Assembly: GCA_964413535.1 (NCBI GenBank)
Contig: CAYPTB010000058.1
Coordinates: 1-64,000 of the forward strand
Length of the DNA: 64,000 nucleotides
Reading direction: 5' to 3'
DNA from: an uncultured Planctomycetaceae bacterium
GTDB taxonomy: Bacteria; Planctomycetota; UBA1135; GCA-002686595
Shown in pieces: positions 4,598 through 64,000 of this stretch. Below the pieces are notes generated by a model. It ran no database searches, had not been told where the DNA came from, and saw nothing but the letters and a program-made list of their open reading frames with translations. Both the position numbers and the translations under genes were made by a program. Positions within the stretch are counted from its first letter, which is position 1, and the number at the start of each line of letters is the position of its first letter.

Positions 4598-4912
4598 GCG
4601 CGGGGGCTTTTCCGATCAGATTTGTGTAAGGCGTGGTAGCGACGCGAGTCTGCGCGCGAGCTCGAGCGTCCGTCGCTCTGTGGGTGAACCCGTCCCCGGG
4701 CGTCGAGAGCGCCGGTTGCGCCCACGGTTGCGGGGAGTGCTCGCGCCGATTCGCGCGACGAACTGCGAAAACTCGTTGCATCGGAGTGCGGTGTCTCGGA
4801 CCTGAGACTGAAGCGCGGTGCGCTCGCGTCCGCACGCGATTGTCGACTGGAGGGACGCACCTAGAATCGCGCGCCAGCCTTCCGATTCGCACCGGAACAT
4901 CAAGGAGAAAAC

Positions 4913-5305: not shown

Positions 5306-5435
5306 TCGGATCCGCGCTCCGTGCGATGCCGCGTCGCGCCATGCCCCGCGCGGCGCGGCGCGCACGGACTTCCGGCCGGCCGTTCGCCCCGAGGGTTGCG
5401 GAAACGGGCGCAACCGGAGATGACGGTTCCTTCCC

Positions 5436-8460: not shown

Positions 8461-8861
8461 GGGCCTCTGCGGAGTCCTTCGGGCCGTGCGAGCCCAGAGA
8501 TCCTAGCCTGCATCCCTCTCCAGCCGCCGGCTGCAACGCCGCAATTCCCGGCATCGGCTGCGTTGGGCTGGGTCGCCCGCCTGGCATCTACCAGCACTTG
8601 CGACGTTTCATTCGCCATCTGGTGAGAGAGGCAGGGAGGGATACGCGGGTTGCGGCCGGGAACGGCGTGTCGCGTTTCGCCGTCGGGCTGGCCGTCGGCA
8701 ACCCGCGCGAGGCCGCCGCGATCCCTCCGGCGCCGAGTGCTGGCCCGGGGTCCTTTCGGTTTCTCTGCTCGGCGCTCTTGAGATCGAGGCGGCCGGCGGC
8801 CGGAAAGCCCTTCGCCTGGGACGAAGGTCCGAAGACCCAGGCATCCCGGAGGCGAAGCGGC

Positions 8862-10526: not shown

Positions 10527-10538
10527 GCTCTCCACCTC

Positions 10539-11141: not shown

Positions 11142-11217
11142 CGTCGTTCCCCTCCTTCCGTCCGACGGGCGCCGCCGCGCCGAATCGCGCCGGCGCATTC
11201 TAACGGGATGGAAGCGC

Positions 11218-12111
11218 TCAGAAGATCCAAGTGAGCGAGGCGCCGAACACCGCGGCGACCTCGACACCGTCGTCGACGAGCTCCTCTCCGTCCGCGTCGA
11301 TCTCCAGGTTGCGGTCGGCCAGGCCTCCGAACAACTCGATGTCGAGACCCCTCGCGTGCCAAACGAGCCCGGCGAGTCCGCTGATCTCGGAGTCCACGAC
11401 GGCGGCGTCCCGCAGCGTATTCTGGTCCTTCAAACGGAACTGCCGCTCGTCGAGCCGCAGGCTGGCGTAGAGGTCCAAACGCTCGTTGGCGCGGTAGCTG
11501 GCGAGCAAGCCTGGATCGGCGGAAGCGATCACCGAGAAGCGCAGGTCGTCGGTGACGCGCCAATCCACGAGCGGCAAGGGGAAGAACTCGTCGTCCTCTT
11601 CGAGCCGCGTGCGTCCCGCGATCCCGAGGCCGAGCTCGAGCTTCTCGCTCGCGCGGAACAGGACGCCGAAAGCTCCTTCGCCGTACAGGCTTCCCGAGAG
11701 ACTCACGTCGTCCGCTCTCCCGGACACGAGCGACAGGTCGAAGAACCAGCGCCGCTCGTCGCTCCCGGATGTGTAAGTGCCTCGGAGCGTGTCGTCCTTC
11801 GCGTCGTCGAAGGGGTCGGGGATGAACAGCATGGCGCCCGACCCGAAGTCGTACTTCGACTCCTCGTGCCGGTACGAGACCTCGGCGAACCCGCCCTCAT
11901 CGTCCCCGGGCCAGGTGCGCGCCAGCGTGCCTCCCCAACGCGTGATCTTGAGCTGGCCGCCGTCATCGAAGTCGGCCTCGGTGTACGCTCGACCGTCGAC
12001 GCGGAGCGACCAATCCGGTTCGTCCCGGTCGCCGAAGAGATCCTGTGCGAAAGCAGGGGATGCGAGGACGGAGAGGGCGAGGGCCGAAGCCGCGTGCGTG
12101 TGGAGCTTCAT
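11218..12111 (-). CDS. Outer-membrane beta-barrel protein (predicted), first gene of the OMP-NfeD-flotillin operon
   Basis: Signal peptide MKLHTHAASALALSVLASPAFAQ, alternating amphipathic beta strands and a C-terminal LTWIF aromatic terminus. The start is ATG at 12111. Confidence 0.6.
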   Translation of the reverse strand: MKLHTHAASALALSVLASPAFAQDLFGDRDEPDWSLRVDGRAYTEADFDDGGQLKITRWGGTLARTWPGDDEGGFAEVSYRHEESKYDFGSGAMLFIPDPFDDAKDDTLRGTYTSGSDERRWFFDLSLVSGRADDVSLSGSLYGEGAFGVLFRASEKLELGLGIAGRTRLEEDDEFFPLPLVDWRVTDDLRFSVIASADPGLLASYRANERLDLYASLRLDERQFRLKDQNTLRDAAVVDSEISGLAGLVWHARGLDIELFGGLADRNLEIDADGEELVDDGVEVAAVFGASLTWIF

Positions 12112-12193: not shown

Positions 12194-13108
12194 TCAGCTG
12201 CCCTCGGCGAGGAGTTCGGCGAGTCGGGCCGCGTTGGCGCGCATGGCAGCGAGGTAGTCCCCCTGCGCCGGTCGATTCCCGCACGGATCGAACACCGCGA
12301 CCCGGACTCCGCGCCGGGCGAGCAGCTCGGCCGTCTGCGCCAGGGGCTCCCCTTCCCAGAGCATGACGGTGGCGGGGTGCTCCGCGAGGAGCGCGTCGAG
12401 CTCCGTCCACCCGGCCGCGTCCGGCGCCTCTCCGGGCTCCCAGTGGACGGACTCGAGGTTCAGCTCGAAGGCCCGCGCCAGGTACTGGTACACGGGATGC
12501 GAGGCCAGGAGCGGCCGGCGCGGCGCCTCCGCGAAGACCGCGCGGAGTTCGCGGTCGAGGTCGGCGAGCTCGCCGGCCAAGGCATCGAAGCCCGCGTGGA
12601 AGCCCTCCGCGCCGTTCGGACGCGCGCGCACGAGCGCGTCCCGCACGGCCTTCGCTTGCGCGGTCGCCAGCACCGGATCGAGCCACGTGGTGAAGGCCGT
12701 TCCCGAGTGCGAATGCGCACCCTGGGGTCCGTGGCTGTGCTCGACCGCGTTCTCGATCGCGATCAGCCGCTCGGCGAAGGACTTCGAAGTGTCGACCTGC
12801 GTCGCGAGCGGTAGCGAGGCTCTCTGGACCCACTTCTCGTAGCTCGCACCGTTTCGCAACACGAGGTCCGCGCGCTGGTAGTCGGCCACGACCGCGCGCC
12901 CCGGCGACCAGGACGCGGGATCCACGTCGGGCGGCGCGGGAAAGGTCACGTGGACGGGCTCACGCGAGCCCGCCGCCACGCGCTCCGCCATGAACGCGAG
13001 CGGATAGTTCGTGGTGTAGACGACGAGCGCGCCGGCCGGAGCGACGGAAGCCTCTTCCGCGGGCGAACTCTCGCGACTGCAAGCGACGAGCGCGACGAGC
13101 GCGACCAT
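12194..13108 (-). CDS. Metal (probably zinc) ABC transporter substrate-binding protein, ZnuA/TroA-like, with a His-rich loop
   Basis: Lipoprotein signal MVALVALVACS. Cluster-9 SBP similarity. The His-rich insertion EHSHGPQGAHSHSG resembles ZnuA. The start is ATG at 13108. Confidence 0.75.
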   Translation of the reverse strand: MVALVALVACSRESSPAEEASVAPAGALVVYTTNYPLAFMAERVAAGSREPVHVTFPAPPDVDPASWSPGRAVVADYQRADLVLRNGASYEKWVQRASLPLATQVDTSKSFAERLIAIENAVEHSHGPQGAHSHSGTAFTTWLDPVLATAQAKAVRDALVRARPNGAEGFHAGFDALAGELADLDRELRAVFAEAPRRPLLASHPVYQYLARAFELNLESVHWEPGEAPDAAGWTELDALLAEHPATVMLWEGEPLAQTAELLARRGVRVAVFDPCGNRPAQGDYLAAMRANAARLAELLAEGS

Positions 13109-27948: not shown

Positions 27949-28176
27949 CCGTAGGTGCTCCGGTGGAAGACCGCGTAGCCCGTGAGTCGGCGGTCGAGAA
28001 GCCCTCCTCCGAGGGTAATGAGTTGCTTTCCGGCTCACTCTGCCATGCTCCGATCGAAAGGCATCGGAGACCCGCCGTCGACACGCCGCGGACCAGCGGC
28101 GAGCCGATTCAGCCTCGAGACCTCGGTCGTTGGTCGACGACCGGCACGTAACACGGCGCGGCCCGCAGCGGGTCGC

Positions 28177-31128: not shown

Positions 31129-31455
31129 GTCGAATCGCTGAGTTGGGGAGCAGGACGGGACGGACAGTTGCTCGCCAAGCTTATCCCGAGACCCTGCATC
31201 GTGGGGAGCCGGCCTCCTCCAGGAGCGTCCCCCACGACCGTTCGTAAGACGCGCTCCGGAGCGGGCTTGCTCGAGCCGGGCGCGGGAGGTTGGCGTGCGC
31301 GACGCACTGAGGATTCGTCCGCGCCGTCGCCGCTGCGCCGTCCACGAACCCGCGGGTTCGGCCGAATCGCCGAACACCGGTCGACGGCATCTCGATCCGC
31401 GCTCAGTTCGAGCGATTCGACGGCGTCGGCTCGAAGCGGACGACTCTCGACTACG

Positions 31456-32334
31456 ATGAATCCGATGTTTGGCGCAGGTTCGAAGCGCGGCTACGTCCCG
31501 CAATCGCCCGACACGAGCGAGTGGGCCGACCGCCTGCTCTTCGACCATTGGCGCGCGATGTCGATCGTCGAGAAGGCCGAGCTCGTCCGCGACCTGTGCC
31601 AGGCGCAGCACGAGCTCTCGCTCGCCGGCCTCCGCGCGCGGCACCCCGAAGCGAGCGAGGAGGAGCTCGAGCTCATGGCGGCCCGCCTGCGGCTCGGCGA
31701 CGAGCTGTTCGAGCGGATGCTGACGTGCGATCGGCTCGTGATCGTGACGAACGTTGACCCGGTAACCGTCGCGGTCGAGGTCGCGAGGATCCTGGAGAGC
31801 CTCGGGATCCCATACCTCGTCGCCGGATCGATGGCGAGCACGCTGTACGGCGAGCCGCGCACGACGCTCGACGTGGACTTCGCGGCGCACATCGATCCCG
31901 CGCAGGTCGACCCTCTGTGCGCCGCGCTCGAACGCACGTTCTACGTCGACCGCGAAGGAGCTCGGCAGGCCGCTCGGTCGGGCGGTCTCTTCAACGCGAT
32001 CCACACGGGTACGCACGTCAAGGTGGACATCTACGCGCGCCCGCGCACGGGAATCCACGCGGAGGAAATTCGTCGCGCCGTGCGAAGGAGGCTGGGACGA
32101 GGCGCCGAGACGGAGCTCGACGTCGCGACGCCGGAAGACACCTTGATCCAAAAGCTCCGCTGGTACCGCCTCGGCGACAAGGCATCCGATCGTCAATGGC
32201 GCGACGTGATGGGAATCCTCAAGACCATCGGCCCGAAGCTCGACCGCGCGTACCTCGATCGATGGGCGTCGAGCTTGGGCCTGACCGATCTCCTGGAGCG
32301 CGCATTCGAGGAAGCAGGACTGCGCGAGGCGTGA
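31456..32334 (+). CDS. Nucleotidyltransferase-fold protein (AbiEii/DUF1814-like GS..DxD core) with a 110-aa N-terminal helical extension
   Basis: GIPYLVAGSMASTLYGEPRTTLDVDFAAHID matches the G[GS]xA....R.T.DxDF pattern. The C-terminal PEDTLIQKLRWYRLGDKASDRQWRDVMGIL resembles the family's helix-and-basic-patch ending. The start is ATG at 31456. Confidence 0.5.
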   Translation: MNPMFGAGSKRGYVPQSPDTSEWADRLLFDHWRAMSIVEKAELVRDLCQAQHELSLAGLRARHPEASEEELELMAARLRLGDELFERMLTCDRLVIVTNVDPVTVAVEVARILESLGIPYLVAGSMASTLYGEPRTTLDVDFAAHIDPAQVDPLCAALERTFYVDREGARQAARSGGLFNAIHTGTHVKVDIYARPRTGIHAEEIRRAVRRRLGRGAETELDVATPEDTLIQKLRWYRLGDKASDRQWRDVMGILKTIGPKLDRAYLDRWASSLGLTDLLERAFEEAGLREA

Positions 32335-32437: not shown

Positions 32438-32514
32438 GCGCCCGTAGCTCAGCAGGATAGAGCACCGGTTTCCTAAACCGGGGGTCACAGGTTCAAGTCC
32501 CGTCGGGCGCGCCA
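32438..32514 (+). tRNA. tRNA-Arg (anticodon CCU)
   Basis: Manual fold: acceptor stem GCGCCCG/CGGGCGC, D-arm GCUC-AGCAGGAUA-GAGC, anticodon arm CCGGU-UUCCUAA-ACCGG (CCU reads AGG), 5-nt variable loop, T-arm ACAGG-UUCAAGU-CCCGU with one A-C mismatch, discriminator G and encoded CCA. Confidence 0.85.
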
Positions 32515-40240: not shown

Positions 40241-43200
40241 ATGGCGGACGAGAGCATCGGGGAGGTCGTGCTCGCGGAGAGATGGAAGCGGTTCTTCCCG
40301 GCCGCGATCCGCGTGCGCGGTGCCGCCTACGCTCGCGACGGGCTCGTCGACGTCACGGAGCTCGAAGAGGGGCTCGTGCAGGCCGTGGTCCAGGGGAGGA
40401 CCGCCTACGACGTCTGCATCGATTGGAGCGATCCGGACGCGCCGATGGGATCCTGCACGTGCTCCGGGTTCGACGCGTTCGGCCCGTGCAAGCACATGTG
40501 GGCGCTCGTCCTGCGCCTGGAGGGCGCGACCGAGGCCGCCGGGAGGCGCAGCGGGTCCATCGGACGTGAGGATCCACGCCGGAGCCCCTGGCGCGCCCGC
40601 CTGGACGGTTTGCGCGCAGCCGTCGAGCATGCGGCCCGAGCTGCGGCCGAGCTCGGGGAGCGGAACCCGTGGCACGGCTCGATCGAGCCCGACTTCGAGA
40701 TTCGCTACGTGATCTCGGTCGAGGGATCGCGGGACACGGGCGGTCTGCTCGTGGAGCCGCGCATCCGCCGCCGCAAGAAGAACGGTGGATGGGGGGCGGA
40801 GCGCGCTTTCTCGCCCGGCGGCCGGGGAGCTTCTGGGCTCGACATGTCCGACCGGCGGATCTTCGCCGTGCTCGAGGGAGCGGGCGACGACGTCGGCTAC
40901 TTTTGGCCTCGCTCCGCCCTCGCGGAGTACCGCGTCGAAGGCGAGCTCCTGCCCGTCGTGCTCCCCATTCTCGTCGCCAGCGGACGCTCGTTCGCGAGGA
41001 GCGCCTCCAAGTTCTTCGGACCGCTCGTGCTCGACGAAGGTCCGAGCTGGCACCCGTCGTTCGACCTCGAGCGCGACGCGGAATCGCTCGTCCTGCGCGC
41101 GGCGCTGGTCCGGGGCGAGGAGCGGATGGACGTGGCCGAGCCCGACTTCCTGCTCGACGGCGGATACCTCGTGGTCCGCGACGTCGTCGCCCGCTTCGAC
41201 GAGGCGGGCGCGTGGATCCTCGCGACCGAGCTGCGCGCCAACGGGGTGCTGCGCGCGCCCGTCGACGGGCACGCGCGGCTCCTCGAGATGCTGGCGCGGC
41301 TCCCCGCGCGCGTTCTCGGTCACGTCGACGGGATGGAGGTCTCGGGTCAGGGGACCCCACGACCGTGTCTCCACGTGGAATCCCCACGCGACGGTCCCGC
41401 TCGGGGGAATCCGAAGCTCGACTGCCGCATCGCGTTCGAGTACGGGAGCGAGCTCGTCGCTCCCGAGGATCCGCGCGAGCTCCTGCCGAGCGCGGGCGCG
41501 GGGAGCTACTCCGCGCGCGACTTCGCGGCGGAGCGCGAAGCGCTGCGGCGCTTCCGGGACTGCGGCGGCGAGCGCTCGGCCGGCACAGGGCGCGAATCGG
41601 GCAACGGAGCCGTGCCCGCGCGGCGCCTGCCGGCGCTGGCCCTCGCCTTGACCGAGGAGGGGTGGCGCGTCGAGGCGGAGGGCAGGCGCTGGCGACGGTC
41701 GCAGGGCTTCGCGCTTTCCGTCCGCTCCGGCACGGATTGGTTCGACCTGGAGGGCGGCATGGACTTCGGCGGCGAGACCGCCGGCCTGCCGGCGCTGCTC
41801 GCGGCGGCGCGCGCCGGCGAGCGGACGGTGCTGCTCGGCGACGGCTCGTTCGGCTTGCTTCCCGAGCGCTGGCTGGAGGACTGGGGCCTGCTCCAGCTCG
41901 CCCGGGAGGAGCGGGCGGGGGCTCTGCGCTTCGCGCAGAACCAAGGCTGGTTGCTGGACGCCATGCTGCTCGCCCGCGAAGGCGTCGAGGTCGACGCGGG
42001 CTTCGCGCGGCTGCGCGAGCGGCTGGCCGGATTCGACGGGATCACCCCCGGAGTGGAGCCGCGCGGGTTCGAGGGGACGCTGCGCGGGTACCAGCGAGCT
42101 GGCCTGGGGTGGTTCGCGTTCCTGCGCGACCTCGGATTCGGCGGTTGTCTCGCGGACGACATGGGGCTCGGCAAGACGGTGCAGGTGCTCGCCCTGCTCG
42201 AGTCGCGGCGGTGCGAGCTCGCCGGCGATCACCGGCCTTCGCTCGTCGTGGCTCCGCGCTCGCTCGTCTTCAACTGGATCGACGAGGCGGCACGCTTCAC
42301 GCCGCGGCTCGCGACGCTCGACTACACGGGCATCGACCGCCGCGAGCGCCTGCGCGCGGCCGGGAGAGTCGACGTCCTCGTGACGACCTACGGCACGCTG
42401 CGCCGCGATGGGCCGGAACTCGCCGAGCGCCGCTTCGACTACCTCGTGCTCGACGAGTCCACGTCCATCAAGAACGCGAGCAGTCAGTCGGCGAAGGCCG
42501 CTCGACTCCTCGCGGCGGAGCATCGGTTGGCGCTCTCGGGCACGCCGATCGAGAACCATCTCGGCGATCTGTGGTCGCTCTTCGAGTTCCTGAACCCGGG
42601 CATGCTCGGGCGCTCGCGCACGTTCCAGGCCTTCGTCACCCGCAGCCCCGGGAGGGCCGGCGCCCCCGATCTCGAGCGCCTGGCGCGCGCGATCCGGCCG
42701 TTCTTCCTGCGCCGCACGAAGGACGAAGTACTCGACGACCTGCCCGAGAAGACCGAACAGACGATCCACTGCGAGCTCGGCCGGTCCGAGCGCAAGGACT
42801 ACGACGAGCTCCGCGCTCACTACCGCGCGAGCCTGCTCCAGCGCGAAGCGGAGGTCGGACTCGGACGGATGAAGATCCACGTGCTCGAGGCGCTCTTGCG
42901 GCTGCGTCAGGCGGCGTTGCACCCGGGTCTGATCGACCCCAAGCGAACGGGCGAGTCGTCGGCCAAGCTCGAAGCGCTCCTGCCGATGCTCGAGCAGCTC
43001 GTGGGAGAGGGCCACAAGGCGCTCGTCTTCTCGCAGTTCACGGCGCTGCTCGACATCGTGAGGAGCCGCCTGGACGCGAGCGGCATCCCCTACGAGTACC
43101 TCGACGGACGCACGCGCAATCGAAAGGAACGGGTCGCACGCTTCCAAGGGGATCGCGCCTGCCCGCTGTTCCTGATCAGCCTCAAGGCCGGCGGCCACGG

Positions 43201-43465
43201 CCTCAACCTCACCGCAGCCGACTACGTGTTCCTGCTCGACCCGTGGTGGAACCCCGCCGTCGAAGCCCAAGCCGTCGATCGCGCCCACCGCATCGGCCGC
43301 ACGCGTCCCGTCGTCGCCTATCGCCTGATCGCGAAGGCCACGGTGGAGGAGAAAGTCCTCGACCTGCAAGCACAGAAACGCGAGCTCGTGAAGACCCTCC
43401 TGGGCGACGGTCGCGCCGTGCTGAAGGACCTCACCCGCGAGGACCTCGAGCGTCTGTTGTCGTGA
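40241..43465 (+). CDS. SNF2-family helicase with an N-terminal SWIM zinc finger (YwqA-like bacterial Snf2)
   Basis: The SWIM motif is [20 protein letters not shown]. The SNF2_N region has [12 protein letters not shown] and [13 protein letters not shown] (a DESH-like box). The HELICc region has [69 protein letters not shown]-like. The start is ATG at 40241 ([10 protein letters not shown]). Confidence 0.85.
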   Translation: [1074 protein letters not shown]

Positions 43466-43472
43466 GCGCGCT

Positions 43473-43683
43473 CTACTCCTCTTCGGCCTCGAGCCAAGCC
43501 ACGTCCCGCAGATCCTTGGGGCGGCCCGAGGAGCGTTTGTTCGTCAACAAGTGCTCGCGCGACAGCACCGGAACCGCGATGCCGGCTATCTCGACCGTGA
43601 TCGCGCGGGCGACCGTGGGCAGCGAGAGCGTGAGCCCCGACGACGAGGTACTCAGCACCGCTCGCGGACAACGCGGACAACAT
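43473..43683 (-). pseudogene. Frameshifted remnant of a small nucleotidyltransferase-fold gene inside repeat copy B
   Basis: One minus-strand frame from ATG 43683 reads MLSALSASGAEYLVVGAHALAAHGRPR (the GS/G..A..hG.PR N-terminal motif). A second frame ends ...VEIAGIAVPVLSREHLLTNKRSSGRPKDLRDVAWLEAEEE* at 43473 (the K.aaGRpKDl.D..L C-terminal motif). The two frames switch near 43595-43610. Confidence 0.45.
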
Positions 43684-43875
43684 GTCGACGAAGTCGCGGT
43701 TCCCCGGCGAGCCCTTCCTTGAAGGCCCACGCCTGCAACGTGAGCTGCCAGACCATCATCATCCGTTCGGATGGAGTCGTCGACCGGAGCTCGGGATCCT
43801 CGTCCGGATCATGGAGCCTCTTCAAGCGCGTCGGATAGGTCGAGCGGTCCACACCGACCCAAGTCTAACCGAACG
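43473..43875. repeat. Repeat copy B, the fuller copy. With copy A it brackets the SWIM-SNF2 gene as imperfect direct repeats.
   Basis: It starts 8 bp after the SNF2 stop. It shares long blocks with 39897-40100 at roughly 75-85% identity within blocks. Confidence 0.7.
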
Positions 43876-44091
43876 GTATTCCGTCCCTCTTCGCGAAGGA
43901 AGTCGTGCTCGAGATCTTCGGCGCGCCCGGGGCACGCAGAAGTGCTCGAACGCATGGTCGAGGTGTTGACGCACCTCGACGCGAAGAGCAGGTAGCGGAT
44001 CGCGGCGAGCGGTCTCGGCGCACGCGGGCACATGGATTGCGGATCGGATCGCCGGGGCGCGTCGGACACCTTCCGAAGAAAACCCTGGACG

Positions 44092-45243
44092 ATGGACTCG
44101 CTTGCGAAGGATTCCCTGGCCGACCTCCGCAATCATCACGAGCCTCCGTGTCTCTCGCTCTACCAGCCGACGCATCGGCAGGGGCCCGAGAAGCGCCAGG
44201 ACCCCATTCGCTTCCGGAATCTCGTGAAGGAGATGGAGGAGTCGCTGCGCGCGAAGCACTCGGCGAGCGTGGTCGAGGCGCTCCTGGAGCCGTTCCGGGC
44301 GCTCGCGGACGACGACGCGTTCTGGACCTACACGCGCGAGGGTCTCGCCGTCCTGGGCGCTTCCGGCACTTTTCAGGTGTACAAACTTCAGCGACCGGTG
44401 CCGGAGCTCGGCATCGTGGCGGCGAGCTTCCACACGAAGCCGCTCTTGCGGATCCTGCAGTCAGCAGACCGTTTCCAGATCCTCGGGCTCTCGCTGAAGG
44501 CGATCCGGCTGTTCGAGGGCAACCGCGATGCCCTCGACGAGATCGCGCTCCGGCAGGGGGTCCCGCGCACGCTCGTCGAAGCGTTGGGAGCGGAAGTGAC
44601 CGATCCGCATCTCACGGTCGGCTCCTACGGCGGCAAGGGCGTGGGGGGAACGCCGATGCACCACGGACACGGCGCCAAGAAGGACGAAGTCGACAAGGAC
44701 GCCGAGCGTTTCTTCCGCATCGTCGACCGCGCGCTCCTGGAGCATCACTCGCGCCCGTCGGGCCTACCCTTGTTGTTGGCGGCGCTGCCCGAGCATCACC
44801 ACCTCTTCCACCAAGTCAGCCGCAATCCGTTCCTGCTGCGCTCGGGGATCCAGATCCATCCGGACGCGCTGTCGATCGACGCGCTGCGCGAGCGCGCCTG
44901 GCGTGCGGTCGAGCCCAACTACCTCGCGCGATTGGCGGAGCTCGTCGACGCGTTCGGGGAAGCGCGCACCCGCAAGCTCGGCTCGGACAACCTGGCTCAG
45001 GTGAGCGAAGCGGCCGCGGGCGGACGCGTCGCGACGCTGCTCATCGAAGCCGACCGCCAGATTCTCGGTCGGATCGACGCCGAGAGCGGTCGCATGGAGC
45101 TCGCGGGCGTCGGGGACACGGAAGTCGACGACCTGCTCGACGACCTCGGCGAGCTGGTAGCGAGCAAGAAGGGCGACGTCGTGGTCGTCCCCGGCGAGCG
45201 CATGCCGACGGACACCGGAGTGGCTGCGATCTACCGCTATTGA
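44092..45243 (+). CDS. baeRF-like / Host_attach-like protein (bacterial eRF1/Pelota-fold family)
   Basis: The C-terminal VDDLLDDLGELVASKKGDVVVVPGERMPTDTGVAAIYRY resembles eRF1 domain-3 / Host_attach endings (...GGxAAILRY). The N-terminal PCLSLYQPTHRQGPE...WTYTREGLAVLGASG fits baeRF N-domains. The start is ATG at 44092. Confidence 0.45.
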   Translation: MDSLAKDSLADLRNHHEPPCLSLYQPTHRQGPEKRQDPIRFRNLVKEMEESLRAKHSASVVEALLEPFRALADDDAFWTYTREGLAVLGASGTFQVYKLQRPVPELGIVAASFHTKPLLRILQSADRFQILGLSLKAIRLFEGNRDALDEIALRQGVPRTLVEALGAEVTDPHLTVGSYGGKGVGGTPMHHGHGAKKDEVDKDAERFFRIVDRALLEHHSRPSGLPLLLAALPEHHHLFHQVSRNPFLLRSGIQIHPDALSIDALRERAWRAVEPNYLARLAELVDAFGEARTRKLGSDNLAQVSEAAAGGRVATLLIEADRQILGRIDAESGRMELAGVGDTEVDDLLDDLGELVASKKGDVVVVPGERMPTDTGVAAIYRY

Positions 45244-45252
45244 CGAGGCGCG

Positions 45253-46479
45253 CTACTCCAGGGCGAAGAGAGCGAAGCGGTTGGCGTTGCACCCGAGGTA
45301 GACGGCGAAGAGCAGGAAGAAGGGCACGCGCACCCAGGAGGATGCGGCTCTCTCCTTCACGAGCGAGTAGGCGGACAGGACGCTGAGGAAGAGGAAGGGA
45401 TAGGCGGGGAAGAGGAAGCGCGTGTAGATCGGGTCGTTGTTCGCGAAGGACCACACCGCGATCAACGCGGCGAGGTAGCTCGAGAGGAAGACCACGGGGA
45501 CGACGCGCGGCTGGAGCAGGAGCTCGAGCGCCCCCGATCGATCGGGAGCTCCCACGCGCCGCAGTGCGGAGACGGTGCCCGCCAGGATCAGGGCCAGCGC
45601 GCACGCGACCACCGCGAAGACGAGTCCTTCGACGCGGTAGGGCGCAGCCTCGACGACTTCGTGCTCGGCCAATCGGAACGGGGAGAACAGGTCGATCAGG
45701 ACCGTCTTGACGGTGAAGAGGACGTTCGTCCCGAAGTCGATCTGGTCGTTCCAGTGGGCGAGCTTGGGGGGCAGGCCGCGCCGCGGGACCATGCGGTTCG
45801 CTGCGAAGAACCGTCCTGTCTCGGCCTTCACGTGGAAGAACCAGGGCAGCGTCAGCGCCGCGGAGGAGGCGACGAAGAGCGAGACGTGGGCGACGGCCTC
45901 TCGCGCCGACCGGCGAGCGAAGACGGCGGCGAGCAGGACCGCGACCAGGGGCGCCAGCCACAAGAACCCGAAGTGCTTCGTGAGCGACGCGACCGCCACC
46001 GTGGCGACCAGGGCCAGCGTGAGGAAGACGTTGGGCCGCTCGCGCTGGGCGACGACGAGCATCATCGCCGCGAAGGCGAGGAGCGTGAAGAGGGTCTCCG
46101 CCACGAGGTGCTGGACGTTCGCGTAGATCGCTCCGCTCCCCACCAGCAGGACGAGGACGGCCAGCGGCGAGACGTTGCTCGCGTGCCTGCGAGCGAAGGT
46201 CGCCGCCAGCGCGAGGAGGCCGAGCAAGGCGATCAGGTTGAAGTGCTTCGCCGGCACGCCCAGCCGCTGCGCGCCGTAGAGGGCCACGGGGTAGGCGGGG
46301 AGCCAGATCTTCGGGTAAGCGTCGATCGCGCTCGCGAGGCTCTCGCTCTTCAAGAACTTGAGGTTGATCCTCGACTGCGCGTGCAGCCTCGGCTCGCCCA
46401 CACGAGCGAGGAAGAGCGCCAGGAGGAAAGCGCACAGCAAGGCGACGCGCAGCGGCCAAGGACGGGCTTCGGACGACAT
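45253..46479 (-). CDS. Polytopic integral membrane protein (about 11 TM; glycosyltransferase-39/DUF2142-like topology)
   Basis: 408 aa with hydrophobic helices throughout and several conserved-looking periplasmic loops. It has no Arg bias. The start is ATG at 46479. Confidence 0.6.
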   Translation of the reverse strand: MSSEARPWPLRVALLCAFLLALFLARVGEPRLHAQSRINLKFLKSESLASAIDAYPKIWLPAYPVALYGAQRLGVPAKHFNLIALLGLLALAATFARRHASNVSPLAVLVLLVGSGAIYANVQHLVAETLFTLLAFAAMMLVVAQRERPNVFLTLALVATVAVASLTKHFGFLWLAPLVAVLLAAVFARRSAREAVAHVSLFVASSAALTLPWFFHVKAETGRFFAANRMVPRRGLPPKLAHWNDQIDFGTNVLFTVKTVLIDLFSPFRLAEHEVVEAAPYRVEGLVFAVVACALALILAGTVSALRRVGAPDRSGALELLLQPRVVPVVFLSSYLAALIAVWSFANNDPIYTRFLFPAYPFLFLSVLSAYSLVKERAASSWVRVPFFLLFAVYLGCNANRFALFALE

Positions 46480-56283: not shown

Positions 56284-56724
56284 TCAGCGAGCGCAAGGTT
56301 CCCAATTGGAGTCATCCCTTGCCCAGTCCGCCAACGTGGCGGATCGCTTCTTCAACAAGGGAGCGAGCTCACGTGCGTTCGCATGGCTACCCACGCTCAT
56401 GTCGGGATGTGTCTGGCCAGCTTCCATCAGCGCGGCGAGGCGTCGCCAGCGTTCGGCGATCGTCGCGACCGCTTCACGCGGCGTGGGGTTCCCCTGCGAA
56501 GAGACGTAGTCCGTCGGCAGATCACCATGGATCACCCACCATCCGACGTGACCGGGGCGGACGACGCTCTCCACCGCCCACACCGACACATACGGAGCCA
56601 CGTGCCACGCCGGCCATGCACCCACTTCGCCGAATGCCGGCAGCTCACGATGCAGGTACGTCACAACGGTCTTGCGGCCCTCGGCACACCACTCTGCTTC
56701 CTTCCGGCGTTCTTCGGCATTCAT
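56284..56724 (-). CDS. Conserved hypothetical protein (DUF4826-like)
   Basis: MNAEERRKEAEWCAEGRKTVVTYL...WHVAPYVSVWAVESVVRPGHVGWWVIHGDLPTDYVS is a conserved-looking Trp-rich core. The start is ATG at 56724. Confidence 0.5.
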   Translation of the reverse strand: MNAEERRKEAEWCAEGRKTVVTYLHRELPAFGEVGAWPAWHVAPYVSVWAVESVVRPGHVGWWVIHGDLPTDYVSSQGNPTPREAVATIAERWRRLAALMEAGQTHPDMSVGSHANARELAPLLKKRSATLADWARDDSNWEPCAR

Positions 56725-56744
56725 GGCTTCCTCGCGTGCGCGGC

Positions 56745-57323
56745 TCAACCGGAGGTCATCTGCTCGAACAGGCCTGGGTAGTGGGCGATGGCGCCGGAGG
56801 GCTGCACGCGGAGCGTGGCGGCGTAGCCGATGGTCGGCGCTTCGTAGGCGTACTCCGAGCGGCTGATGCGCGCATAGCTCTGCGGCAGGCGCACGAGCCG
56901 CAGGCCCGGGAACTCGAGGTAGGCGGCCGGCGCCTCGGCGCGCTCACCGACTTCCAGCGCGAGCCGCCGCAGCACGATCAGATTGGTGGCCGGCGTGAAG
57001 CTCAGGTCGAGGTCGATGCAGCCCGCGACGGCCTTCTTCTGCACGCCGTCGACCTCCCAGCGCCCCGAGCCCGCGGCGCGGATGCGCAGGTCGACGGCGC
57101 GCGTACCGAGGTAGCCCGTCACGCGCGCTCCGCGGCTGCGCCACGCCGCGTCCGTCGTGACCTCGTAGGAGAAGTGACACGGCTTGCCCTCGAAGAAGAC
57201 CGCGGCGCCGGACAACCGCCACCCGTTCGCGAGCGCGAGCAACCGGCAACCATCGTGGCCGGGACGATCCAACCTGCGCCAGAAGAACGTGCCGGCGCGC
57301 GCGGCCGAGCTGGATCGCCTCAC
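56745..57323 (-). CDS. Putative glycolipid-binding family protein (PF06475-like)
   Basis: FFWRRLDRPGHDGCRLL...DAAWRSRGARVTGYLG...GSGRWEVDGV...GCIDLDLSFTPATNLIVLRRLAL...AAYLEFPGLRLVRLPQSYARISRSEYAYEAPTIGYAATLRVQPSGAIAHYPGLFEQ follows the family pattern. The start is GTG at 57323 and overlaps the M20 gene stop (GTGA). Confidence 0.55.
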   Translation of the reverse strand: MRRSSSAARAGTFFWRRLDRPGHDGCRLLALANGWRLSGAAVFFEGKPCHFSYEVTTDAAWRSRGARVTGYLGTRAVDLRIRAAGSGRWEVDGVQKKAVAGCIDLDLSFTPATNLIVLRRLALEVGERAEAPAAYLEFPGLRLVRLPQSYARISRSEYAYEAPTIGYAATLRVQPSGAIAHYPGLFEQMTSG

Positions 57324-58991: not shown

Positions 58992-61900
58992 TCACAGGAC
59001 ATCCACGTAGAACGTGTTCGATCCGGGTTCCGCCGTGAACGTGCCGGACAGCTCTTGGCCCTCGCTCTCGATCACCCAGCGGTAGTCTCCCTCCGGGGCG
59101 CCCTCGAGGATCAGGCGGCCGTCGGATCCCGTGGTGGTGGAGCCGGTGCTCGAGGTGAAGAGCTTGTACCGTTCCAGGTAGTCGCGAACAGTCGTGTTCG
59201 AGTCGAGGTGACGCAGATCAATGGGGAGATTCGCGCGCGGAGGTCCGCCCTCGCGCGCCTGGATCTCGATCCGACACCGCTTGCGCATCCCGAAGACCTG
59301 CGGTCCCCCATTGCGAACGACCTGTATTCTTGTAGCGATCGGTAGGTAATCCGGCTCGGCGACCCTGAGGTGGTACTCGCCCTCCGTCAGATTCCTCGCG
59401 ATGGTGGAGCCGTTCTCGTTGGTAGGCGGCATGTCGATCGTGATCAGCCTGTCGAGATCACCGAGTATCGCGACGATACCGGCGATCGGCCCGCGTCTGC
59501 CCACGAAGCTCAACTCTGTGTCGGCGTTACCGTCGAGGACGAGCACGATGTCCTCGTCTTCGCGTGGAAGGTCGACGTAGATGCCTGCGCGTACGCCCTT
59601 TAATGGATGCATCAAGTGGAAGATCGCGCGATCCTCAGTGAGGCCTTGAACCCAGCATCGCCCCGTATCGTCCGTCTTGAGTCCGGACTCATGGAACAGG
59701 CGACTGCCTGGCAGGTTGACGTCGACGCTCACGCCAGGAAGAGGATTGCCCTCCGGGTCGACGACGCGGAGCCACCGATCTCCTGCGCCGATCTCGATGC
59801 GCAAGGACCGCGCCTCCGATGGACCTAACTCGATTCGACGGCTCGCTAGTCTCTCGCCGCCGAGATACCCCGGTTCGTGCACCCCAACTTGGAACACTCC
59901 TGGCGGGAGATACCGAATCGTCGCCTTGCCGGACGAATCGAGGGCCACGTTTCGGTAGTCGATTCCGTTGGGCCGCTTGTGGTCTGCGATGAAACCTAGT
60001 TCTGGAGGCAGAGCCTCACCCCGACGTGGGATTACTTCTACGGATAGGCTGCCTCCGAACGAAAGATCGATGTCCACAATCCATTTTTTTCCCGGAACGA
60101 GTTCGACGTCCGTACGGTGTCGCGAGCCGTCAGGAAGGTCGACGTCGAATCCGTAGCGACCGCTGCTCACAGAGTCGAAGCGAGTTTCGCCCTTGCTGTC
60201 GAAGGAGCGTATTGGAAGGAGCGACCTTCCTCGAGCGTCGGAAGAGGACAGGACGCAGTTCGAGGGATCCAGCTCGGCGCTTCCCTGAAGCCTGACGACT
60301 AGAGATTGTTTCGGGAACAACCGGACGAGTCCCAGATCGAGATCCAGACCCTCTTCGGTCGTCACCACCATCTGGCGCGAAGAGAAGTCAGGCGCGGTAA
60401 CGAGGAGCAAAGCAAGTCCTCTGGGAAGTCCCGCGATCTCGAACGATCCGTCGGGCTCGACGAATCGGCCCGAACCGGAGGGCTCGATCGGCACGTCACT
60501 AGCGCCAACGATGAGCTGGACGTGCGCGGTCGACACCGAGTCCCCCGTGCGCGAATCGACCACGCGTCCCCAAGCTCGGATCGTGTCCGGAAGTCCGATT
60601 GCTAAGCCATCGACGCCTTCCGGAGGGACGACGATCTGGATTGCATCACTCATGCCTCTACCACTGGAGGCCGCCACCATCGACACGCGCCCGAGCGGAA
60701 CGGTATCCAGCTCGAAGGATCCGTCGCCCCTACCCGTGAAGCGATAGGTCTCGGCGAGCGTGATGCTCTCCGTTGGCCACACCACGAGCTCGAAGTTCGG
60801 TACGGGCTCTCCGCGCCACGTGCACTTGCCCGTGACGGTCGCGGCGCGTGGGAGGACGATCAAGCGTGTGATCGGGTCGGGCTCGGGAACGACGAAGGGA
60901 TCTGCTTTCGACGGGGCATATCCCACACAAGCGAAGCTCGCCTCGATGACTCCCGGCGGGCAGCCGCCCACGGCGATGTAGCCGTCCTCGCGCGCCCTTG
61001 CTGAGGTGCCGACGTATCGTTCGTTCTGTTTCCATCGGACCGCCGCCGTCGCATTGGGAAGGTGGTTCTCTTCCTCGTCGACGACGAGGAACCAAACTAG
61101 ATTGCCCACCTCAGCTTCGAAGTCAATGCGGTGGACGTGACCCGGAAGGACATGCGCAAGGCGCGCCTCTTTGGGAATGATGTCGGTCCCTTCCAGACGG
61201 AAGGAGTACTCGTCAGCGACTGGCAGGACTGCGAGCTCGATCGGTCCCCATCGATCCGAGAGATGCTCCAAACGAGCGAGTTCTAGGATGCTCCCACCAA
61301 CCAGGGCCGTGCACACGACGGCCAGCGACGTTGACTCGCGGATGTCGCCGCTTCGTGTGATCACACCCTCGACTGCGAACATCGATCCGAGTGATAACGT
61401 GATCGAGGTAGTGGGGAAGCCCTCCCACGGTGCCGAGGATTTGCCGCCTTTCTGGGCGAGGACGCGAAGCCGACCCGGCATGGGATGGACGTTCGCGACG
61501 CCCTGCGCGTCGGTCGTGACTTCCCGCGCTAGAACAGCGCTTTCTTTACTCGCATCGAGGGAACGTTGAAGCACGACGGCGCCGTCCACTGCGCGATCAG
61601 CGTCGAGGACCTTGACGAGAATCGATTTGGTTCGCGTCAGCTTGTATGTGACTCCCTTGATCCGTTGCCGTGGATTCGGGGACACGGGAATCGCCAGGGC
61701 CTCGAACTCAGGGTGGGTCAACCAGACGACAGAGGAGCGTTCTCCTAAAGAAGGAGGTGAAGTGTCGAAATGAAACTTGCCCGTCTCGTCCGTCACCGTT
61801 GCGATCGAGGACGAACTCACATGAGCGGCGAGCTGGTCGGAGTCGGTGATAGGAACTTCGGGCAGCGGAGTCCAGGAGACCCAAACTGACTGAACTGGAG

Positions 61901-62183
61901 TACCCGTCTCCTCGACGACCATTCCCGAGAACGCGTGCTCCGGTTGCAGCTTGCGTTGCTGGATCGATCCCTCGGTCTCGCCGCGGGCTATGTCGCTTGC
62001 CCGCTGCGAAGTGTAAGTAGCCAATGCTTCAGATTCTGCTGCGAGGGAGTCATCGACCGAAGACGGTCGAAGTAGCGGAGCTTCGGGTATCCAATCGGTG
62101 CGATAGAAGACCAGCAGGGAGACGGCCGCGGCGGCGAGAGCGGTTCCGGAAACAGCGAGGATCGTCCTCTTGGAGATCAACAT
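58992..62183 (-). CDS. 1063-aa membrane-anchored protein (N-terminal signal-anchor) made of more than 8 carboxypeptidase-regulatory-like beta-sandwich repeats. It lies in a lower-GC block.
   Basis: The TM anchor is MLISKRTILAVSGTALAAAAVSLLVFY. Repeat units include GMVVEETGTPVQSVWVSW, WGRVVDSRTGDSVSTAHVQLIVG...EPDGSFEIAGLPRG, RVVDPEGNPLPGVSVDVN...TDDTGRCWVQGL and GKCTWRGEPVPNFELVVW...GRGDGSFELDTVPLG. Local GC is about 60%, against about 72% for the window. Confidence 0.8.
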   Translation of the reverse strand: MLISKRTILAVSGTALAAAAVSLLVFYRTDWIPEAPLLRPSSVDDSLAAESEALATYTSQRASDIARGETEGSIQQRKLQPEHAFSGMVVEETGTPVQSVWVSWTPLPEVPITDSDQLAAHVSSSSIATVTDETGKFHFDTSPPSLGERSSVVWLTHPEFEALAIPVSPNPRQRIKGVTYKLTRTKSILVKVLDADRAVDGAVVLQRSLDASKESAVLAREVTTDAQGVANVHPMPGRLRVLAQKGGKSSAPWEGFPTTSITLSLGSMFAVEGVITRSGDIRESTSLAVVCTALVGGSILELARLEHLSDRWGPIELAVLPVADEYSFRLEGTDIIPKEARLAHVLPGHVHRIDFEAEVGNLVWFLVVDEEENHLPNATAAVRWKQNERYVGTSARAREDGYIAVGGCPPGVIEASFACVGYAPSKADPFVVPEPDPITRLIVLPRAATVTGKCTWRGEPVPNFELVVWPTESITLAETYRFTGRGDGSFELDTVPLGRVSMVAASSGRGMSDAIQIVVPPEGVDGLAIGLPDTIRAWGRVVDSRTGDSVSTAHVQLIVGASDVPIEPSGSGRFVEPDGSFEIAGLPRGLALLLVTAPDFSSRQMVVTTEEGLDLDLGLVRLFPKQSLVVRLQGSAELDPSNCVLSSSDARGRSLLPIRSFDSKGETRFDSVSSGRYGFDVDLPDGSRHRTDVELVPGKKWIVDIDLSFGGSLSVEVIPRRGEALPPELGFIADHKRPNGIDYRNVALDSSGKATIRYLPPGVFQVGVHEPGYLGGERLASRRIELGPSEARSLRIEIGAGDRWLRVVDPEGNPLPGVSVDVNLPGSRLFHESGLKTDDTGRCWVQGLTEDRAIFHLMHPLKGVRAGIYVDLPREDEDIVLVLDGNADTELSFVGRRGPIAGIVAILGDLDRLITIDMPPTNENGSTIARNLTEGEYHLRVAEPDYLPIATRIQVVRNGGPQVFGMRKRCRIEIQAREGGPPRANLPIDLRHLDSNTTVRDYLERYKLFTSSTGSTTTGSDGRLILEGAPEGDYRWVIESEGQELSGTFTAEPGSNTFYVDVL

Positions 62184-62195
62184 GGGGCGTTGAGA

Positions 62196-62435
62196 TCACG
62201 GAGTCCGACCCGGTGTGGATGGGAGATTCTCGTTCTGCACATCGTCCGGCTGAGTGATTTTTGTGGTCCGCTGCACAGTGACTTGGCCTTTCCCCAGTTT
62301 TGGTGGAGAAGTCACTCCGCCCTGAGCAGCAGCAATCGATTGGTTCGCAAAGGACAGCCCTGCCAGCAGGCTCGCCGTTACGACGACGAGCCGTGAGCTA
62401 CGGAAGCCTTGAAAGCACGACTTGCCGTGAGGCAT
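62196..62435 (-). CDS. Candidate small secreted peptide (79-aa precursor, about 45-aa mature) between the TPR gene and the giant repeat gene
   Basis: ATG at 62435 is preceded by ttgatGGAGGaaatcggcg. The signal peptide is MPHGKSCFQGFRSSRLVVVTASLLAGLSFANQSIAAAQ. The mature part is GGVTSPPKLGKGQVTVQRTTKITQPDDVQNENLPSTPGRTP. It overlaps the last 38 nt of the TPR gene in another frame. Confidence 0.35.
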   Translation of the reverse strand: MPHGKSCFQGFRSSRLVVVTASLLAGLSFANQSIAAAQGGVTSPPKLGKGQVTVQRTTKITQPDDVQNENLPSTPGRTP

Positions 62436-63360
62436 CGCCGATTTCCTCCATCAATACTCGAGCAATCCGTACTCGATGGCCATCCATCCTTGATCGGCCG
62501 GTGTAGGTGCCTTTGCGCACCACACGGACGTAATCCGCGACCGAGATGTGGTCGGGGGGCAAGAGCTCGTCGAGCCTCCTACTTGCGTCGAGAGCGGACT
62601 CTCGATCGCCCAAGAACACTGACACTGCGAGGCAATTCATCAGCGCGCTCGATCGATCGGGGCAGATCTGGACGGCGAGGCGAAATGCTTCGAGGGCTTC
62701 CTCGAGTCGGTCGAGACAGAAAAGACTGACCCCCAGTCCTTCTAAGCAGCAGGCACTCGTCAACGGCATTGGATTCATTCGAAGAGCATCGCGATAGCCC
62801 TCCGCAGCATCTCTCCAGCGCTTGGAGCTCATCAGGTCCATCGCGATGTGCGCGACGGCCTGATCTACGAGGGTGAGGCGGGTCGACACTCGCGCGAGAT
62901 GCATGACTCGGATGCGTGCAGCGGGCGGCGAAGTGAGGCACCCCGTCAACAGGTCGTGACCCTCGCGCAAGGGCGGGTCGTCGAATCCAGGCGGGGTGGA
63001 ATCGACCTGCGCTCTCCATTCATTTTCCTCGAGGAACTCCAAGCGTCGGTTCACCGTCAGGTTTCGGTCCCACTTGTCTGCTGCGTCCTCTTGGGTGTAA
63101 AGCTCGATCAAGCAGCGCTGGCGCAGCAGGTAGGCGACCTCTTCCCGGTGCACTTGCAGCAGGTGGCGCTCGGCTTCCGTCAGACCGGCCGCAGTGAGGC
63201 CGACCGGTTCGTCTCGCACGGCGCGAACGAGCTCGCCGGAGGTGGGTATGCGCAAGAGCTTCGCCTTCGGATCCTCGGCGATGTCGAGCAGCACCTGCTC
63301 GAGGTCGGGGTGGTAGTCGATGTCCTGGCTCACTGGGTCACCTTTCCGCCATGCTATCAC
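62398..63360 (-). CDS. TPR-like helical repeat protein (320 aa), middle gene of the low-GC operon
   Basis: Helical hairpin repeats (LEEALEAFRLAVQICPDRSSALMNCLAVSVFLGDRESALDASRRL, AAEGYRDALRMNP). It has no signal peptide. Its ATGA start overlaps the upstream gene's stop at 63357-63360. Confidence 0.6.
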   Translation of the reverse strand: MIAWRKGDPVSQDIDYHPDLEQVLLDIAEDPKAKLLRIPTSGELVRAVRDEPVGLTAAGLTEAERHLLQVHREEVAYLLRQRCLIELYTQEDAADKWDRNLTVNRRLEFLEENEWRAQVDSTPPGFDDPPLREGHDLLTGCLTSPPAARIRVMHLARVSTRLTLVDQAVAHIAMDLMSSKRWRDAAEGYRDALRMNPMPLTSACCLEGLGVSLFCLDRLEEALEAFRLAVQICPDRSSALMNCLAVSVFLGDRESALDASRRLDELLPPDHISVADYVRVVRKGTYTGRSRMDGHRVRIARVLMEEIGDASRQVVLSRLP

Positions 63361-63998
63361 CAGTCCGATGGCCAGTTACGCAGTGCCAGGAGCGCACTCG
63401 TGGAGCTGGTCTTGGCAGACAGGGAGTGGATGAGGGCGGCGAGCGCGCGTTCTACGTCGCGCTCGACGGATTCGGCGACACGACCCTCGCGTCGCGCGAA
63501 GTCCTGGGCCGTGGCGCCGAGGACTGCGATCGCGAAGAAGCTCCTGCGCACATCCGGGGCGAGCGCGTTGAACGCGACGCAACTCGAACGAGCTTCGTTC
63601 GGCTCCATGCCGAAGAGGTCGCCGACCACGGCGTAGTGGGCGGGGCGCTCGACGGCCAGGTTCCGGCGCTCGCCCGCATCGTCCTCTTCGAGGAGCTCGC
63701 GGATGCTGTGATCGATGCGCGCCTCGAGCCACGCATCCACGGGCGGCGTTCCCCGATAGCTGTAGCCGGCGTAGGCGGTGCGGGAAAGAGCTCGATTGAA
63801 GAGTCTCGGCTTCGAGATCAGGTACGCGAGCTGATTCCTGCGCGCGAAACATCGCAACCGCAGGTCGAGCGGATCGTCGTCGTAGAGTCGGGGAAGAAGG
63901 TCGCTCGGCGCGGATCGGAAGAAGGTCGAGATGTCGATCCGCACGCGGGGAGGGGATCCTCCACCGTACAGATCCCATCCGTCCGTTCCTTCTCCCAT
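63357..63998 (-). CDS. Putative divergent ECF-like sigma factor (213 aa) with a sigma-70 region-4-like HTH at the C-terminus
   Basis: ALAPDVRRSFFAIAVLGATAQDFARREGRVAESVERDVERALAAL resembles region 4 (L...R.V..L..L.G.S..EIA...G...GTVKSRL.RA...L). VDAWLEARIDHSIRELLE resembles region 2.2-2.3. The start is ATG at 63998, 2 nt from the window end. The assignment is tentative. Confidence 0.35.
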   Translation of the reverse strand: MGEGTDGWDLYGGGSPPRVRIDISTFFRSAPSDLLPRLYDDDPLDLRLRCFARRNQLAYLISKPRLFNRALSRTAYAGYSYRGTPPVDAWLEARIDHSIRELLEEDDAGERRNLAVERPAHYAVVGDLFGMEPNEARSSCVAFNALAPDVRRSFFAIAVLGATAQDFARREGRVAESVERDVERALAALIHSLSAKTSSTSALLALRNWPSDW

Positions 63999-64000
63999 GG

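Follow-up and report, generated by a model that had tools for sequence, protein, structure and literature searches.

What is encoded by the GC-poor block at the end of the DNA stretch examined here, and what might its genes do together? The stretch, called the window below, comprises 64,000 nt of contig CAYPTB010000058.1 from an uncultured Planctomycetaceae bacterium, and its last five kilobases (58992-64000) hold four minus-strand genes, which we call A, B, C and D in the order in which they would be transcribed. Extracytoplasmic function (ECF) sigma factors form one of the three main routes of bacterial signalling and are very numerous in Planctomycetota. We find that the four genes make up a conserved, uncurated operon of Planctomycetota, which looks like a new kind of sigma regulatory module for an envelope protein. 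In the reading that we favour, with about as much confidence as doubt, A is a divergent ECF-like sigma factor and B a soluble, anti-sigma-like protein dedicated to it, and the same transcript also encodes an exported peptide (C) and an envelope array (D).

The four-gene module and its proteins

All four open reading frames (ORFs) are present on the minus strand where the first-pass annotation, made from the letters alone, had placed them. Gene A (63357-63998) codes for a cryptic protein of 213 aa with an ECF-like sigma-factor fold, and gene B (62398-63333) for a soluble protein of 311 aa in which an orphan N-terminal domain (aa 1-95, 63049-63333) is followed by C-terminal tetratricopeptide repeats (TPRs; about aa 150-270, 62524-62886). 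Gene C (62196-62435) specifies a pre-peptide of 79 aa with signal-peptide-like aa 1-37 (62325-62435) and a predicted mature part Q38...P79 (62199-62324). Gene D (58992-62183) specifies a protein of 1063 aa in which an N-terminal membrane anchor at aa 6-27 (62103-62168) and a Pro-rich linker precede an array of CarboxypepD_reg domains. Only 2 nt separate the ATG of A (63998) from the end of the window, and A is complete. The exact proteins are on record in one 68.5-kb NCBI contig and in one Logan contig (L001); the latter extends past the window and has a 164-nt spacer upstream of A.

B had at first been given the alternative GTG start at 63360; the GTG at 63333 is the likelier one, as judged by the gene call in the source contig and by the N-termini of the homologs. 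With this start, A and B are 23 nt apart, B and C overlap by 38 nt and C and D are separated by 12 nt, which leaves the B/C junction as the only one of the supposed stop/start overlaps. Neither consensus sigma-70 promoters nor intrinsic terminators were detected above chance inside the block, which is compatible with a single transcript.

The gene neighbourhood of the homologs had been set in advance as a possible refutation of the module, and the order of the sigma-like, TPR and repeat genes was found to be kept. Complete A-B-C-D modules occur in 8 loci, namely the window (= L001), L002, L003, L007, L008, L012, L021 and L028, and compatible partial modules, as far as the contig allows, in L005, L006, L009, L013-L020, L022-L027 and L029-L031. 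B directly follows an A-family gene in the same direction, with a short gap or overlap, in 20 loci (8 found earlier, and 12 of the 12 new ones with enough upstream DNA), and wherever enough DNA is available downstream of C, a D-like ORF comes next. The flanking genes differ at every locus. All named relatives are hypothetical proteins of metagenome-assembled genomes (MAGs) of Planctomycetota. Over seven loci the mean pairwise identity is 47% for the N-terminal domain of B, 38% for A, 27% for D, 26% for C and 21.5% for the TPR part of B. By sequence comparison, the core of the module is thus A together with the N-terminal domain of B, and the TPRs and the exported proteins evolve fast. That these two are the most conserved, with the TPRs of B, C and D at 21-27%, is what one would expect if they formed the core of an interface to which variable input and output parts are attached.

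Two observations concern the neighbourhood of L002, a Planctomycetota MAG. Its 871-aa D ortholog (3887-6502) is uncalled, small antisense ORFs having been called instead, and the module adjoins two proteins with CHAT domains, of which one contains many TPRs, as well as an ABC/AAA_21 ATPase (6508-9924 on the minus strand, and 12636-12742), an arrangement that resembles defence/signalling islands.

Protein A had been annotated as a putative ECF-like sigma factor. Searched against Pfam and NCBIfam it matches no family at E<=1, and among the PADLOC models nothing matches A, C or D. A word-indexed protein search returned one relative of A (57% identity, from a Planctomycetota MAG) and 4 relatives of B, and a metagenome scan seeded with one A alignment (A3) found no loci. 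The exhaustive HMMER scan of 1.84 billion representatives gave 720 relatives of A at E<=1e-3, 432 of them at E<=1e-10, nearly all of about 200 aa. With a 150-sequence alignment AlphaFold2 modelled A at a predicted local distance difference test score (pLDDT) of 90.5 and a predicted template modelling score (pTM) of 0.84; this model supersedes a poor one made from two sequences (pLDDT 52). It consists of two helical domains, one sigma2-like (about aa 30-111) and one sigma4-like (about aa 119-194), joined by a linker of about 7 residues. By the model, A thus has the traits of ECF (group 4) sigma factors: a sigma2 and a sigma4 domain, the latter with a helix-turn-helix (HTH), neither sigma1.1 nor sigma3, and a size of about 200 aa. 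In the PDB, Foldseek places only ECF sigma factors among the first 23 matches (AlgU, EcfG-type RpoE, sigmaE, SigH, SigW, SigL and CnrH), aligned over 165-190 columns; the best are bona fide sigma factors in holoenzyme or anti-sigma complexes, and PhyR is also present among the structural matches.

The relatives of A point in the same direction. Among 150 of them 21 match Sigma70_r4_2 (best E = 1.8e-5), 1 matches Sigma70_r2 and 17 match TIGR02937 (sigma70-ECF), and 18 of the 19 NCBIfam families matched by any member are sigma factors. Searched against the PDB, the two-sequence profile of A had no match, and the 150-sequence profile has its best matches, which are marginal, in ECF region 4. One relative carries the label 'sigma24 family' from the Joint Genome Institute (JGI). 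R151, the residue at sigma4's 'LP...R' position, does not vary in any of the 148 sequences, and in the A family a conserved W90-L occupies the place of the ECF 'WL' of region 2.3/2.4. The first description of the 213-aa protein accordingly stands as far as the sigma2/sigma4 fold is concerned, by structure prediction and fold search, and fails on direct matching to hidden Markov models (HMMs).

Further features of the A family were noted. In A and its six closest relatives the last residues before the stop are W-P-x-D/S-W (63357-63374 in the window, stop included), with the codons GAC TGG TGA shared by five of the sequences, and distant relatives have acidic disordered tails in place of WPxDW. 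The WPxDW tail might serve in docking, with the TPRs of B as one candidate partner. The 429-aa protein P0021, from an ENA metagenome, is a tandem duplicate of the whole A-type unit, with two matched stretches and two near-identical halves.

For B, annotated before as TPR-like, the repeats are well supported, by Pfam TPR_2 (E = 3.6e-8) along with TPR_1, TPR_12, TPR_16 and TPR_14, and by matches of the B profile to consensus TPR, OGT and PEX5 structures in the PDB. TPR models are also matched by 4 of 6 orthologs, and of the PADLOC models only generic TPR ones match B (E = 2.9e-4 and 0.03). Across loci B measures 302-320 aa. Its N-terminal 95 residues, with the motif AERHLLxVHREE, are the most conserved part of the module and have no match in Pfam or the PDB; the relatives of this domain are hypothetical proteins of Planctomycetota MAGs.

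The candidate secreted peptide C is a real gene, since a small ORF of the same layout stands at the same position in 16 loci, with a length of 63-96 aa and a start -38 to +14 nt from the B stop. The layout consists of a basic n-region, then an h-region of 12-20 hydrophobic residues and, ahead of a conserved Gln, small residues at -3/-1; the signal peptide is a prediction from hydrophobicity and the -3/-1 rule only. In 13 of the 16 homologs the hydrophobic region is followed by [small residue]|Q-x-x-G..PP; the window's C has AAA|QGG..SPP, then a Pro/Gly/Thr-rich tail and a Pro-stop end. A Pro-stop ending of all C peptides was considered and given up: it was true of the first 7 loci, and with more loci added terminal Pro was found in 9 of 14 complete sequences, which makes it enriched and not universal. 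C is called in the Logan assembly and absent from the NCBI record. It should be noted that gene callers err in these low-GC blocks, C being missed and D sometimes missed.

Protein D begins with about 5 cytoplasmic residues, followed by the hydrophobic segment aa 6-27 (Kyte-Doolittle 2.27), the Pro-rich linker and the tandem CarboxypepD_reg domains. It matches Pfam CarboxypepD_reg (PF13620) at E = 2.3e-37 (127.7 bits against a cut-off of 32.3) in 6 stretches, and also Big_1, EMC7 and SpaA; the CarboxypepD_reg cut-off is passed by all five D orthologs tested. The N-terminal anchor described earlier is confirmed. As for the number of repeats, put before at more than 8, the internal-repeat profile detects 8 units (6 strong and 2 weak), and the length allows about 11-12 domains. 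A sequence search of D against the PDB gave nothing, and a scan of genome contigs with D returned only the already known Planctomycetota MAG.

Upstream of A we found a promoter-like motif, TTGnnn-N17/18-TAnnnT, in 5 of the first 8 loci, where 0.066 were expected and 0 of 2000 shuffles reached the observed count. In this first set it occurs once per module and only upstream of A; in L001 it reads TTGCGG-17-TACTCT (3645-3673), about 80 nt past the window end. Another box, ATTCCCCnnTCTG, is found in L001, L002 and L005, at a distance of 45-55 nt upstream of this motif. As ATTCCCCnnTCTGnnAmCsG this box is located at 3586-3605 of L001 (about 120-140 nt past 64000), at about 1965-1985 of L002 and at about 41-60 of L005. 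A similar sequence is seen at about 5242-5262 of L021, within the apparent N-terminal coding region of A, and elsewhere in the window GGATTCCCCrmTCTG occurs at chance level.

Base composition and the question of horizontal transfer

The block had been described as having a GC of about 58-62% in a window otherwise at about 70-75%, and the shift was taken to suggest that this copy was acquired horizontally. The drop itself is clear, with a GC of 0.621 for 58992-64000 versus 0.708 for 1-58991. At 0.602-0.650, the block's five 1-kb bins rank below all the others of the 64, and five lowest bins in a row have a probability of about 8e-6 by chance; the bins outside it have a mean of 0.708, a standard deviation of 0.029 and a range of 0.653-0.780. 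The figure of 70-75% was loose, since milder dips (0.65-0.68 per kb) occur at 10000-12000, 28000-32000 and 43000-46000. The GC step at about 58.8-58.9 kb falls in the spacer that separates the start of an M20-family peptidase gene from the stop codon of D. From 58850 the low-GC and low-GC3 (GC at third codon positions) block extends to 64000 and on for about 150-200 nt past the window end in the source contig, and in L001 the GC recovers upstream of A. The GC3 is 0.79 for A, 0.72 for B, 0.60 for C and 0.71 for D, against 0.90-0.95 in those neighbouring genes that Pfam supports (the M20 peptidase, an alpha/beta hydrolase, an ECF fusion gene, and the PolX-like and kinase-TPR genes). The last two are the upstream neighbours of the block, visible in the source contig. 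Block and flanks are thus distinct in both measures.

Some features elsewhere in the window may be added. The dip at 28000-32000 contains a minus-strand ORF of 1339 aa (28177-32196, GC3 0.82) and is adjoined by a tRNA-Arg(CCT) at 32438-32514. A DUF4826 gene (56284-56748, minus strand) has a GC3 of 0.72, low for this genome; it lies 2.2 kb off the block, amid genes of normal composition. An Rfam scan of the window gave a tRNA outside the block as its sole match.

Is the block then a recently acquired horizontal island, with the GC drop as the signature of its donor? The deviation in GC and GC3 is strong, sharp-edged and exactly coincident with the four genes, the flanking genes differ at every locus, and all four proteins are singletons at 90% identity, all of which would fit such an island. 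We nevertheless consider it unlikely. In all 9 of the 9 loci that have flanks, the module has a lower GC than these, by 0.02-0.10, and the proteins of these loci are just 27-57% identical; the dip is therefore old or intrinsic, and as a trait of the module family it gives no proof of a recent transfer of the window's copy. One recent transfer from a lower-GC donor predicts an equal depression in the four genes, in this genome alone. Instead, the GC3 declines stepwise from A through B to D and is in most loci lowest in C, in parallel with the rate of divergence. Neither tRNA, integrase or transposase nor notable flanking direct or inverted repeats were found at the borders of the block, and the compared genomes are too distant from each other for their differing flanks to inform. 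The claim of horizontal acquisition for this copy is hence not upheld. The family-wide dip may come from weak codon selection in fast-evolving, probably rarely expressed genes, or from habitual mobility of the module. The case advises caution, as a compositional dip need not mean recent gene transfer and low GC is here a property of the module family.

Possible function and alternatives

In the mechanism that we propose, A would act as a highly divergent ECF-type (group 4) sigma-factor-like protein able to bind RNA polymerase, and the N-terminal domain of B would bind A in the manner of an anti-sigma factor, while the fast-evolving TPR domain of B would receive the input. C would be exported as a Sec-secreted Pro/Gly-rich peptide of about 42 residues with Gln first, and D as a rod of about 8-12 beta-sandwich domains that is anchored in the inner membrane and extends into the envelope or spans it. 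Once A is released from B, transcription of the module, and possibly of other genes, would be switched on or boosted, and the envelope array would be made on demand. D may serve as an adhesin, a spacer or a surface layer. The first-pass annotation had instead imagined a sigma-factor domain coupled to the extracytoplasmic array. Such coupling is unworkable in the split module: D has only about 5 cytoplasmic residues, and therefore makes no direct contact with a cytoplasmic sigma factor or TPR protein.

Several points weigh against the proposed mechanism. The window's A matches no sigma HMM at E<=1, neither Pfam Sigma70_r2 nor r4/r4_2, and hhalign of the A family with the window's own ECF domain (in the gene at 5436-7454) gave nothing. 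The core-binding motif of region 2.2 (D-A-E-D-L-x-Q-E-type) is replaced by R65-L-x-x-R69-A-x-A72-R73-x-A75 in the family consensus, the equivalence having been set by helix order in the model and not by superposition. The recognition helix of sigma4 is rather acidic in the window's clade (VERDVERAL) as compared to the basic family consensus (VRRRLRRAL), so a role as a sigma mimic that does not bind DNA is possible. As to B, no 19-residue stretch with a Kyte-Doolittle value >=1.6 exists in 7 B proteins, hence no transmembrane segment, and B has neither the zinc-binding anti-sigma (ZAS) motif H-x3-C-x2-C nor similarity to known anti-sigma domains. No route connects the exported C and D with the cytoplasmic A and B. 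The promoter-like motif upstream of A was defined post hoc, after inspection of the data, and is found in just 6 of 17 loci once distant loci are added, remaining strong in the window's clade. Finally, a distant A homolog in locus L011 has other partners, a 202-aa protein and a 990-aa AAA_lid_14 protein, and the sigma-like family is therefore wider than the four-gene module. The 202-aa protein was compared with the B N-terminal profile, and its E = 0.36 is non-significant. The distant homolog itself is P0108, of 364 aa and 'sigma24 family' according to JGI, and the three genes occupy L011 9001-13724.

The loss of the region 2.2 motif, the recognition helix poor in basic residues in the window's clade and the lack of any sigma HMM reaching threshold could also mean that A is not a working sigma factor: it might serve as a decoy or switch partners in the way that PhyR's sigma-like domain does, or be an ordinary HTH regulator, with B as its target or co-regulator. 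PhyR is indeed among the structural matches, and the sequence upstream of A resembles a housekeeping promoter (TTGnnn-N17-TAnnnT) and not the typical ECF GGAAC/CGT promoter. We nonetheless regard this as rather improbable, as both sigma domains are kept at high model confidence with the usual short linker, R151 is invariant throughout and the consensus recognition helix is basic. In addition, A has neither a receiver nor another signalling domain, and its top structural matches are the genuine ECF sigma factors in their complexes.

B and C, in turn, invite a reading as a quorum-sensing pair of the RRNPP type, in which the propeptide C would be secreted, processed, and re-imported or sensed, and B would be its TPR receptor. 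Binding of the peptide would then make the N-terminus of B release or capture A, with D as a density-controlled output, for example in aggregation or adhesion. Formally, the pair agrees with the five computational criteria for such systems (PMC10075063), which are a propeptide of 10-100 aa, a Sec-type N-terminus (here a predicted one), a receptor of 250-500 aa (302-320 aa for B), TPRs and adjacency. In most loci the start of the peptide gene lies within the 3' end of the receptor gene, as in rap-phr cassettes, B has a Rap-like layout with an N-terminal helical domain followed by TPRs, and a conserved effector domain (47%) combined with a diverging TPR part (21.5%) and a divergent peptide is the pattern of a co-evolving receptor and peptide. 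Set against this, all known systems are in Firmicutes and their mobile elements (PMC10075063), and a diderm cell needs export and re-import through two membranes, with no Opp-type permease linked to the module. Within C, conservation is highest at the predicted mature N-terminus (Q-x-x-G..PP) and not in a short C-terminal peptide, and its signal peptide is a prediction from hydrophobicity and the -3/-1 rule. TPR proteins beside small ORFs are common, and the signature has a high rate of false positives outside its training phylum. Peptide control of this type is in our opinion quite improbable. The fuller version, a pair of the RRNPP kind in Planctomycetota whose output is the capture or release of the cryptic ECF-like sigma A, with D as a density-controlled surface product, we give only a slim chance.

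Least of all do we believe that C acts as a leader or arrest peptide of the SecM, MifM or VemP type and regulates the translation of D: C has an export signal, lies 12 nt upstream of D (or overlaps it) and ends in Pro-stop, a slow-termination context, in the window and in 9 of 14 complete homologs, yet some homologs have no terminal Pro, a conserved arrest motif is absent from the C-terminal region, the C-D junction has no stable or conserved mRNA structure (z-scores of -1.07 to +0.51 in five loci), and D is not secretion machinery.

Comparison with known systems

Taken as an end product, D resembles the surface arrays of other organisms, such as the anammox S-layer protein Kustd1514 and the stalks of Cna-B/SpaA-type adhesins, in being a long tandem array of transthyretin-like beta-sandwiches outside the cytoplasm. 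It differs from them in its N-terminal anchoring and in having no sorting signal and no enzymatic or lectin domain; with the S-layer model it gave E = 0.16, which is chance level.

With the RRNPP cassettes (Rap-Phr, PlcR-PapR, AimR-AimP) the module shares a cytoplasmic TPR receptor of about 310 aa next to, or overlapping with, the gene of a peptide with a predicted Sec signal. Unlike them it belongs to diderm Planctomycetota, its B has no HTH or phosphatase-type effector and the proposed target is sigma-like; furthermore, the mature N-terminus of the C peptide is conserved, and there is no evidence for re-import. If B and C do signal by peptide, this would be the first RRNPP-like system outside Firmicutes, and peptide-based cell-cell signalling would be wired straight to a sigma factor in a diderm phylum without a known system of this sort.

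A further comparison is offered by the window itself. The first-pass annotation held that the domains of the module occur fused in one polypeptide encoded at 5436-7454 on the plus strand. This is indeed a genuine ECF sigma factor (Sigma70_r2 and r4_2; NCBIfam sigma70-ECF) followed by a hydrophobic segment and CarboxypepD_reg, and so resembles the module in having, in the same genome, an ECF sigma and CarboxypepD_reg beyond a membrane segment. Specific homology to A or D is what it does not show, only the domain families being shared: the A profile has no match in the fused protein, and D matches it at E = 0.002 over one repeat. C-terminal extensions of planctomycetal ECF sigma factors have been reported to result from the fortuitous insertion of duplicated sigma genes (PMC7671368), and the fusion is for this reason weak Rosetta-stone evidence. 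Near its stop a coding stretch begins at 7451-7954 on the plus strand ('MSLIESTEGG...', in the 6494-7954 frame), which may be a separate overlapping gene or a frameshifted continuation. It is followed on the minus strand (7948-8460) by a gene for a 170-aa protein without a Pfam match at E<=1e-3, the N-terminus of which, GGFTLTDLVVALVLIAAV, resembles the processing motif of prepilins and pseudopilins.

ECF42 is another case for comparison, with a C-terminal TPR extension fused to the sigma factor (PMC7826278). Here too a TPR module would be the regulatory appendage of a sigma factor and replace the classical membrane-bound anti-sigma factor (PMC7826278). The difference is that the TPRs of our module are on a separate polypeptide, after an orphan domain of 95 residues, and that A is not recognisably ECF42. 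The published ECF classification requires Pfam matches to sigma2 and sigma4, and the A family, lying outside it, is for that reason uncounted (PMC7826278). The 432 cluster representatives at E<=1e-10 are thus proteins of sigma fold that are invisible to Pfam-based ECF censuses. The A-family members examined at close or moderate distance are locked to the same three partner genes in a compact unit. If A is a true sigma factor, it enlarges the known sequence space of the sigma-70 family and adds an anti-sigma type that is soluble and combines TPRs with an orphan binding domain.

Also close in design are the ECF sigma/anti-sigma operons (sigmaE-RseA, SigW-RsiW, AlgU-MucA, EcfG-NepR). The module departs from these in that A fails the curated sigma HMMs and has its region 2.2 rewritten, and in that B is a soluble, TPR-bearing protein without ZAS or membrane span, accompanied by the fixed extra genes C and D. 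In the literature searched this fixed association with C and D appears undescribed, and in sequence B seems unlike the known anti-sigma domains. What the module has in common with such operons, whose sigma factors are also the top structural matches of A, is a protein A built of sigma2 and sigma4 without sigma1.1 or sigma3, and a gene order that begins with sigma and continues with a partner whose N-terminal domain is conserved, with a link to an envelope protein.

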